From Escherichia coli O157:H7 (GTDB lineage Bacteria; Pseudomonadota; Gammaproteobacteria; Enterobacterales; Enterobacteriaceae): a stretch of 64,000 nucleotides of DNA. This document shows, piece after piece, positions 23,969 to 24,341 of this stretch. The stretch lies in the NCBI RefSeq assembly GCF_013167455.1, contig NZ_CP038328.1. One strand, 5' to 3'. Every line of letters starts with the position of its first letter. Position 1 is the first letter of the stretch. A program made the translations under genes and the position numbers. Below the pieces are notes generated by a model. That model was not told where the DNA came from. It did not search any database and saw only the letters and a list, made by a program, of their open reading frames with translations.

Positions 23969-24307
23969 TATGTAAATTATCAATAAAAGACGTTATTTTA
24001 TCATTATTTATAATGAGTTATGAGTGTTTGTTTTATTACGGTTGTTAGATCTATACAAAAAGTATCTTTTACAGTGGCTTCGCTATTTTAAAAAGGAATT
24101 CATATAAGGAAAAATATAATTATGTTATTTATTGGCAGATTGAGTTGACAGGGGGCAGAAATCTGAGGGTAAGAAAAGTCAGCAACAACAATCCACTACA
24201 TCAACAGACCAGCAATCGCGTGCCGAGATACGCTGGAAATACCCGAAGATTGAACTGGCGGGTGGTGTGACTGACATCAGTCAGTGATGACTTTTTAGCA
24301 AACTATG

Positions 24308-24341
24308 TTCGACCAGTCAGCATATTTGCTGACTGGTCGAA
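24308..24341. repeat. perfect 15-bp inverted repeat (stem-loop) 17 nt downstream of elaD stop
   Basis: ttcgaccagtcagca-tatt-tgctgactggtcgaa; no adjacent U-run on either strand. Confidence 0.7.

Follow-up and report, generated by a model that had tools for sequence, protein, structure and literature searches.

A conserved perfect hairpin between elaD and the yfbK remnant of Escherichia coli O157:H7 is probably a shared 3' untranslated stem-loop

The short gap that separates elaD from the remains of yfbK in Escherichia coli O157:H7 contains a perfect palindrome with 15-bp arms, and we propose with moderate confidence that it is a 3' untranslated stem-loop common to both genes, serving as a pause site or roadblock for RNA polymerase and as a barrier to exonucleases, with release of the polymerase left largely to Rho. 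We infer that its selected function lies at the RNA level, in the definition and protection of 3' ends. It has so far gone unannotated, but it belongs with gene-end hairpins of a familiar sort and is not a new type of element. A first-pass annotation, made from the sequence alone, had offered three options for the palindrome: a protein-binding site, a recombination target, or an RNA-stabilising structure. The third is favoured here, because the palindrome lies in a shared 3' untranslated gap, takes the same fold on both strands, is conserved, and has a Rho-sensitive region nearby; the first two fare poorly against the evidence given below. The window referred to throughout is the whole stretch of 64,000 nucleotides that was analysed, which is a 100% match to E. 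coli O157:H7, and coordinates are those of the window unless MG1655 is named.

Genes flanking the palindrome

The elaD gene, which encodes a deubiquitinase of the ElaD/SseL family with a C-terminus ending in KRVS, is on the minus strand at 24358–25581, its TAA stop codon being at 24358–24360. On the plus strand, yfbK survives as two pieces: a strongly diverged 5' remnant of ~120 nt (24104–24225; ~75% identity to K-12) and a 3' remnant (24248–24287) whose homologue in K-12 is the final ~40 nt of yfbK and which retains the former stop codon, TGA, at 24285–24287. A 22-nt filler (24226–24247) stands between them and replaces ~1.56 kb of yfbK. In K-12, where the product of the intact gene ends in ELADGVTDISQ, yfbK and elaD are convergent and separated by a 70-nt gap, and the palindrome is inside that gap. 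The O157-type arrangement with its deleted yfbK is found as a contiguous sequence in 2579 of 5426 complete E. coli genomes. The yfbL gene (23329–23946) is annotated as a frameshifted pseudogene, and the O157 locus is decaying over the whole of 23329–24287; the first-pass annotation had described the site as an elaD/yfbL junction, but it is really the junction of elaD with the yfbK remnant. The neighbouring genes are yfbL, yfbM and rbn, and no recombinase or transposase gene adjoins the locus.

Structure of the large palindrome

The large palindrome, TTCGACCAGTCAGCA-TATT-TGCTGACTGGTCGAA, occupies 34 nt at 24308–24341, and its two 15-nt arms (24308–24322 and 24327–24341) are 100% complementary to each other around a 4-nt loop; the coordinates, arms and loop are all as first described. 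Since the palindrome is perfect, RNA of either strand folds into the same 15-bp hairpin, which is thus a stem-loop in transcripts of elaD and of yfbK alike. The two stop codons are 16 nt (elaD) and 20 nt (yfbK) away from the hairpin. It is the longest of the perfect short-loop hairpins in the 64-kb window, and a stem of 15 bp was reached in none of 100 block shuffles of the window, the shuffle maximum of 14 bp having occurred once. The predicted RNA fold of the 34-nt hairpin has an energy of -29.1 kcal/mol on the plus strand and -27.3 kcal/mol on the minus strand (z ~ -9 on both strands), with none of 200 shuffles folding as well, and the hairpin is kept in both the minimum free energy and the centroid structures of 101-nt contexts of either strand. 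As single-stranded DNA the fold is -18.5 kcal/mol.

Conservation and variants of the hairpin

Conservation was measured with 40-mers of equal length against 5,426 complete E. coli genomes, as the percentage of carriers in which the copy is identical. The 40-mer spanning the hairpin (24305–24344) is identical in 88% of its carriers (3707/4200), as against 28% for the left flank (24262–24301), 7% for the 3' coding end of elaD (24362–24401) and 47% for an intergenic 40-mer upstream of elaD (25600–25639). In a further sample, for which the search pattern specified the flanks but none of the 34 nt between them, 73 of 78 hairpin copies are identical, and among 48 metagenome and genome haplotypes each hairpin variant is seen in no more than three, compared with 17 to 32 for variants of the flanks. 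The hairpin is unchanged both with the intact yfbK of K-12 and with the deleted yfbK of the 2579 O157-type genomes. Given the contrast between 88% identity and the 7–47% of neighbouring 40-mers, the hairpin appears to be under purifying selection. It is the best conserved piece of an otherwise decaying locus.

The variants that do occur are of low frequency and are all single changes, with no compensatory double substitutions among them. Three (T2C, G21A and T30C, numbered within the hairpin) retain pairing only in minus-strand RNA, two (C11T and C26T) retain it only in plus-strand RNA, and three (G4T, C22A and C26G) lose it on both strands. Since there are no compensatory doubles, covariation neither proves an RNA structure nor tells which strand is the functional one. 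A function specific to the elaD-sense strand was considered on the basis of G·U-compatible transitions, which the first three variants favoured, and was dropped when later variants erased the bias.

The state of the hairpin was also compared with that of elaD. The most decayed copy, with four changes, is in strain STEC17-183 beside a frameshifted elaD, and G21A (TGCTG to TACTG) is found repeatedly, in STEC17-183, ATCC 8739 and MRY15-131, all three of which have elaD as a pseudogene. A link between decay of the hairpin and pseudogenisation of elaD is suggested by these three strains but contradicted by ACN001, CAVP766 and AR_0128, in which the hairpin is perfect despite a frameshifted or truncated elaD. 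With a perfect hairpin beside a broken gene, conservation of the hairpin is not obviously dependent on a working elaD.

These patterns bear on the possibility that the palindrome has no function, having been generated by a strand-switch (templated) mutation or having arrived with the elaD segment, and owes its conservation to a low mutation rate, to hitch-hiking, or to self-correction of a quasi-palindrome. The missing compensatory changes fit such an origin, as do the single pair-breaking variants in strains with an intact elaD (VCSW8 and C11), the persistence of the hairpin beside elaD pseudogenes, and the lack of a 3' end at the hairpin in the tables of Adams et al. 2021, TRS and TERMITe. 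A functionless palindrome is nonetheless hard to reconcile with the difference in identity between the hairpin and its neighbouring 40-mers, which belong to the same locus and the same lineages; deep haplotype splits are present in both flanks and none runs through the hairpin, and templated self-correction should give variants altered in both arms, of which none is seen. We regard this explanation as distinctly improbable.

The same data could be read as conservation of a sequence and not of a fold. If the palindrome were a sequence-specific DNA or RNA element belonging to the horizontally acquired effector gene elaD, the retention of its precise sequence, beyond mere pairing, in 88% of carriers without compensatory variants would be accounted for; it could be the site, relic or still active, at which the AT-rich elaD segment entered beside yfbK, or one that is bound by a regulator or RNA-binding protein dedicated to the control of elaD. 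We consider an element of this type most improbable.

Copy number and distribution

The large hairpin is single-copy, with one occurrence in the 64-kb window and one site per E. coli genome (matches at two 'places' are the two strands of the same site). Phages and viral contigs gave no match to it, and the plasmid matches, initially candidates for mobile copies, are chromosomal fragments. With the element thus single-copy and its plasmid occurrences accounted for, membership of a dispersed repeat family, an outcome for which the first-pass annotation had allowed, is excluded. A degenerate stem pattern run against ~100,000 species representatives had a single match, in Enterococcus cecorum, which was rated a chance match and rejected as a homologous element, being an ordinary terminator-like hairpin. 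The best Rfam score is 29 bits, to an unrelated Staphylococcus aureus sRNA with a gathering score of 141. A scan of species-representative genomes with the ElaD protein returned no loci, and the best 120 matches in a search for ElaD homologues are all E. coli proteins with >91% identity.

The elaD segment and roles at the DNA level

The region from ~24262 to 25765 is AT-rich, with 32–38% GC compared with 50–60% in its neighbours, and the large palindrome is within the last ~80 nt of this elaD segment. In the B2 strain E. coli Nissle 1917 both elaD and the hairpin are missing, and the gene next to yfbK is rbn. Close similarity of the Nissle yfbK to that of K-12 ends at 'ACTGGCG', at about window position 24262, beyond which it has different last codons (its product ends in AKDLDNSQN). 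As similarity to Nissle 1917 is lost from ~24262, both the large palindrome and a smaller one described below are part of the elaD-linked segment, so that, as judged from composition and alignment, a single AT-rich segment includes the final codons of yfbK as well as the two palindromes and elaD. The elaD gene is known from intestinal pathogenic E. coli and is absent from ExPEC (PMC1847702), with which the absence of elaD and the hairpin from the B2 strain Nissle 1917 agrees. The segment is carried as a unit to a close approximation: among the 5,426 complete genomes the hairpin has 4199 carriers, the 3' end of elaD 4195 and the left flank 4202. The 120-nt yfbK–rbn gap of Nissle 1917 contains a different, REP-like inverted repeat (CTGTTTGCC...GGCAAACAG).

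The position of the palindrome invites an explanation at the level of DNA, either as an operator for a dimeric regulator or as a recombination or insertion target, or the terminus (resembling attC or a transposon end) of a mobile cassette carrying elaD, at an indel boundary. A perfect palindrome near the end of an AT-rich segment that is missing in B2 strains is what might be expected of such a site, and the region is rich in deletions that affect yfbK, yfbL and elaD. A further deletion, in strain CUVET18-565, has removed the yfbK remnant and the hairpin together with most of elaD, and the region upstream of yfbL there directly adjoins the first ~110 nt of that gene.

The details do not accord with a role as a recombination site. 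The right edge of the O157 yfbK deletion, at ~24248, is 60 nt to the left of the large hairpin, and K-12, which has an intact yfbK, has an identical hairpin, so the deletion neither created the hairpin nor is marked by it. The suggestion that the palindrome marks the boundary of missing genes therefore holds in that it is close to variable boundaries, and fails in that it is not the edge of the yfbK deletion. No repeat related to the palindrome was found where the elaD segment ends on its far side, which speaks against the end of a mobile cassette and, together with the identical K-12 hairpin, against a recombination target; no recombinase or transposase gene adjoins, and E. coli genomes have one copy of the element each, with none in phages, viral contigs or true plasmids. 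Integron attC sites, moreover, need imperfect pairing with extrahelical bases.

An operator is no better placed. Operators are usually shorter and less exact than perfect 15-bp arms. Matches to the 15-nt arm with three or fewer mismatches number one beyond the palindrome in the window, against 1.45 expected, so that the half-site does not recur more often than by chance. An LldR gSELEX peak has been reported for elaD/yfbK; it lies inside yfbK, ~1.2 kb from the hairpin by our own estimate, and the motif there is not the palindrome. An operator of the LldR/FadR type was rejected on these grounds, and the notion of a protein-binding site is weakened by both the non-recurrent arm and the location of the peak. 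All told, a DNA-level site of any of these kinds is very unlikely, its only points in favour being the palindrome as such and the variable boundaries close by.

Small palindromes and the shared core

A second palindrome, ACTGAC-ATCA-GTCAGT, is present on the plus strand at 24270–24285, two bases to the left of the position (24272–24287) at which the first-pass annotation had placed it, and it does contain the CAGTCAG core (24278–24284) ascribed to it. It consists of the yfbK codons for T, D, I, S and Q together with the first base of the stop codon. Its folding is non-significant (-9.3 and -7.6 kcal/mol on the two strands, z -1.7 and -1.5), with 15–16 of 200 shuffles folding as well, and it is polymorphic among E. 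coli haplotypes. The T5 run that follows it in the window (24292–24296) is there as had been noted, but is lineage-specific, position 24293 being G in 32 of 48 haplotypes, K-12 included. The idea of repeated palindromes built on a common core does not survive these observations, as the small one is the polymorphic 3' coding end of yfbK with a non-significant fold, and the core common to the two is most readily accounted for by the coding sequence of yfbK together with chance or codon usage.

The 7-mer CAGTCAG/CTGACTG occurs 15 times in the window against 5.3 expected, and near-matches to the 11-mer GACCAGTCAGC number four beyond the site itself against 0.7 expected; examples of such sites are at 4616, 15499, 27785, 44452 and 62587. 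The near-matches are remote from the elaD locus, and the likely cause is therefore codon usage (CTG ACT GGT), a property that is lost in dinucleotide shuffles.

A third, weak palindrome, TTAACA-ATGA-TGTTAA, at 24346–24361 on the minus strand, overlaps the elaD stop codon and is included in the predicted fold of both strands. Each of the two convergent stop codons is thus in or beside a small hairpin, and these small hairpins flank the large one. Elsewhere in the window there are other perfect hairpins of 10–11 bp at 51371–51400, 6246–6272 and 3823–3849. The first of these is preceded by AAAA and hence has a T-run on the minus strand, and the last (CACTGCCGGATGC...) is REP-like in appearance. 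Judged by eye, the large hairpin, unlike that at 3823–3849, has no GCCGGATG-type REP core, and GTAG, another part of the REP consensus, is missing from it too.

Termination signals and published 3' ends

The tails that follow the stem, TTAATTAA on the plus strand and CATAGTTT on the minus strand, have four T in eight positions each, which is below the 5-of-8 criterion of our terminator scan, and the large hairpin was called on neither strand. T-tract scores, calculated with a formula after d'Aubenton-Carafa, are 2.23 on the plus (yfbK) strand and 0.64 on the minus (elaD) strand, whereas the nuoN terminator, which is also in the window, scores 5.27; 2.23 is about the break-even value in that formula. 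The earlier conclusion that the hairpin lacks a U-tract and is not a canonical intrinsic terminator is borne out by these results, and lacking a proper U-tract the hairpin alone probably does not release RNA polymerase in the canonical manner.

The plus-strand score leaves room for a weak but genuine intrinsic terminator, acting mainly on the yfbK-sense strand, where the A/U stretch UUAAUUAA would provide a weak RNA–DNA hybrid. The stem is very stable, and the plus-strand tail begins with UU and is all A/U over 8 nt. Such a terminator is nevertheless distinctly unlikely: neither strand has five T in eight, the score of the elaD-strand tail is poor, and the 15-bp stem exceeds the length typical of terminators. 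It sits badly also with the abundance of RNA antisense to elaD, which is ended by Rho far downstream, and with the fact that no Term-seq 3' end is listed at the hairpin by Adams et al. 2021 or in the TERMITe tables.

Among the published Rho termination regions, identified by sensitivity to bicyclomycin, is one in the sense orientation of elaD (MG1655 coordinate 2383800, Rho score 3.6; supplementary file 2 of Adams et al. 2021, PMC7815308), which in our own coordinate mapping is ~140 nt upstream of the hairpin, the resolution of the call being ~800 nt. A second Rho region, at 2382764 on the opposite strand, is antisense to elaD (Adams et al. 2021, PMC7815308); this MG1655 minus-strand position corresponds to the 5' part of elaD, at about 25500 in the window. 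Rho-terminated RNA antisense to elaD outnumbers the sense RNA, with 274 versus 165 reads per 800 nt (PMC7815308). The antisense RNA represents either yfbK read-through across the hairpin or transcription from an internal antisense promoter in the AT-rich elaD, and if it comes from yfbK, then the hairpin is leaky on that strand.

The first-pass annotation had also raised the case of elaD transcripts that end precisely at the palindrome. No such end is listed in the data sets covered here: K-12 Term-seq under three conditions lists no 3' end at 23839xx–23840xx (Adams et al. 2021, PMC7815308), the TRS tables have none for elaD, the TERMITe tables have none at the hairpin, and an O157 small-gene study has nothing for the elaD/yfbK locus. 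This absence may reflect only low elaD expression. The nearby rbn gene offers a precedent, since TRS locates its primary 3' end on the minus strand (2382571–73 in MG1655) immediately beyond a hairpin that is U-less on that strand. In the window this hairpin (CAGGGCAAGTTTCGCCCTG, 25731–25755) is just downstream of rbn and has its T-run on the plus strand, which is the wrong strand for rbn.

Taken with the fold and the conservation of the hairpin, these data are consistent with the following scheme for the proposed 3' untranslated stem-loop. Where the two genes meet, the hairpin would cause RNA polymerase to pause or would block its way, and release of the polymerase would be largely Rho-dependent, at least on the elaD strand. 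After termination the hairpin would block 3'-to-5' exonucleases, so that the elaD mRNA would end in a stable hairpin and the yfbK mRNA, where the gene exists, would likewise end in the same one. Ends defined in this way would limit antisense read-through into the partner gene.

Non-intrinsic, hairpin-encoding bidirectional terminators are a prevalent feature of the gaps in convergent gene pairs of E. coli (Ju et al. 2019, via bioRxiv 10.1101/2022.10.23.513370), and the hairpin could be one of these, trapping polymerases from both sides at one fixed position such that head-on and trailing collisions bring about release without Rho or a U-tract. The match to the class described by Wang, Watters, Ju and Liu (bioRxiv 10.1101/2022.10.23.513370) is good in that the element is between convergent genes in K-12, with a short gap, and encodes a hairpin on both strands, unlike an intrinsic terminator. 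The class is, however, Rho-independent by description, whereas the elaD 3' region is listed as bicyclomycin-sensitive and Rho regions are called on both strands near or across elaD, at ~800-nt resolution. The collision mechanism is best suited to highly expressed pairs (bioRxiv 10.1101/2022.10.23.513370), and here there are 165 and 274 reads per 800 nt; furthermore, the partner gene is a mere remnant in O157, and yfbK is deleted in ~61% of hairpin-bearing genomes while the hairpin is unchanged. Termination by collision is for these reasons unlikely. This mechanism and weak intrinsic termination are both close variants of the idea of a gene-end hairpin.

Comparison with known systems and significance

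The closest parallels to the proposed stem-loop are the processed 3' ends of Rho-terminated transcripts (PMC6061677; PMC7815308), in which there is likewise a U-less stem-loop after a stop codon in a Rho-sensitive region. The elaD hairpin differs from those examples (Dar and Sorek 2018; Adams et al. 2021) in that none of the 3'-end tables covered here places an end at it, and the Rho calls in question have a resolution of hundreds of nucleotides. REP palindromes in 3' untranslated regions can serve as partly Rho-dependent terminators as well as stabilisers of mRNA (REP325 preprint), and the elaD hairpin resembles them as a U-less extragenic palindrome in a 3' untranslated region, the convergent-gene setting included; the dual role proposed here is the same as that proposed for REPs. 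It differs from REP and BIME elements in being single-copy and without a family, and in its perfect 15-bp stem as compared with the imperfect stem of a REP. With canonical intrinsic terminators it shares a stable, G+C-containing stem-loop right after the stop codons, but it has no U-tract and its stem is unusually long. It differs from integron attC sites and the terminal hairpins of mobile elements in being a perfect palindrome with no partner repeat, no adjoining recombinase and no true plasmid or phage copies.

For annotation of O157, the stretch that separates elaD from what is left of yfbK is not empty and holds the most conserved element of a decaying locus, in which yfbK is deleted, yfbL is frameshifted and elaD is often a pseudogene. 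The hairpin would also offer a clean natural test case for Rho termination combined with hairpin protection, since it is identical in K-12, which has the partner gene, and in O157, which has lost it. If the proposed function is correct, this would be one more of the U-less gene-end hairpins held to define and protect 3' ends and to insulate convergent genes, a finding of modest significance.
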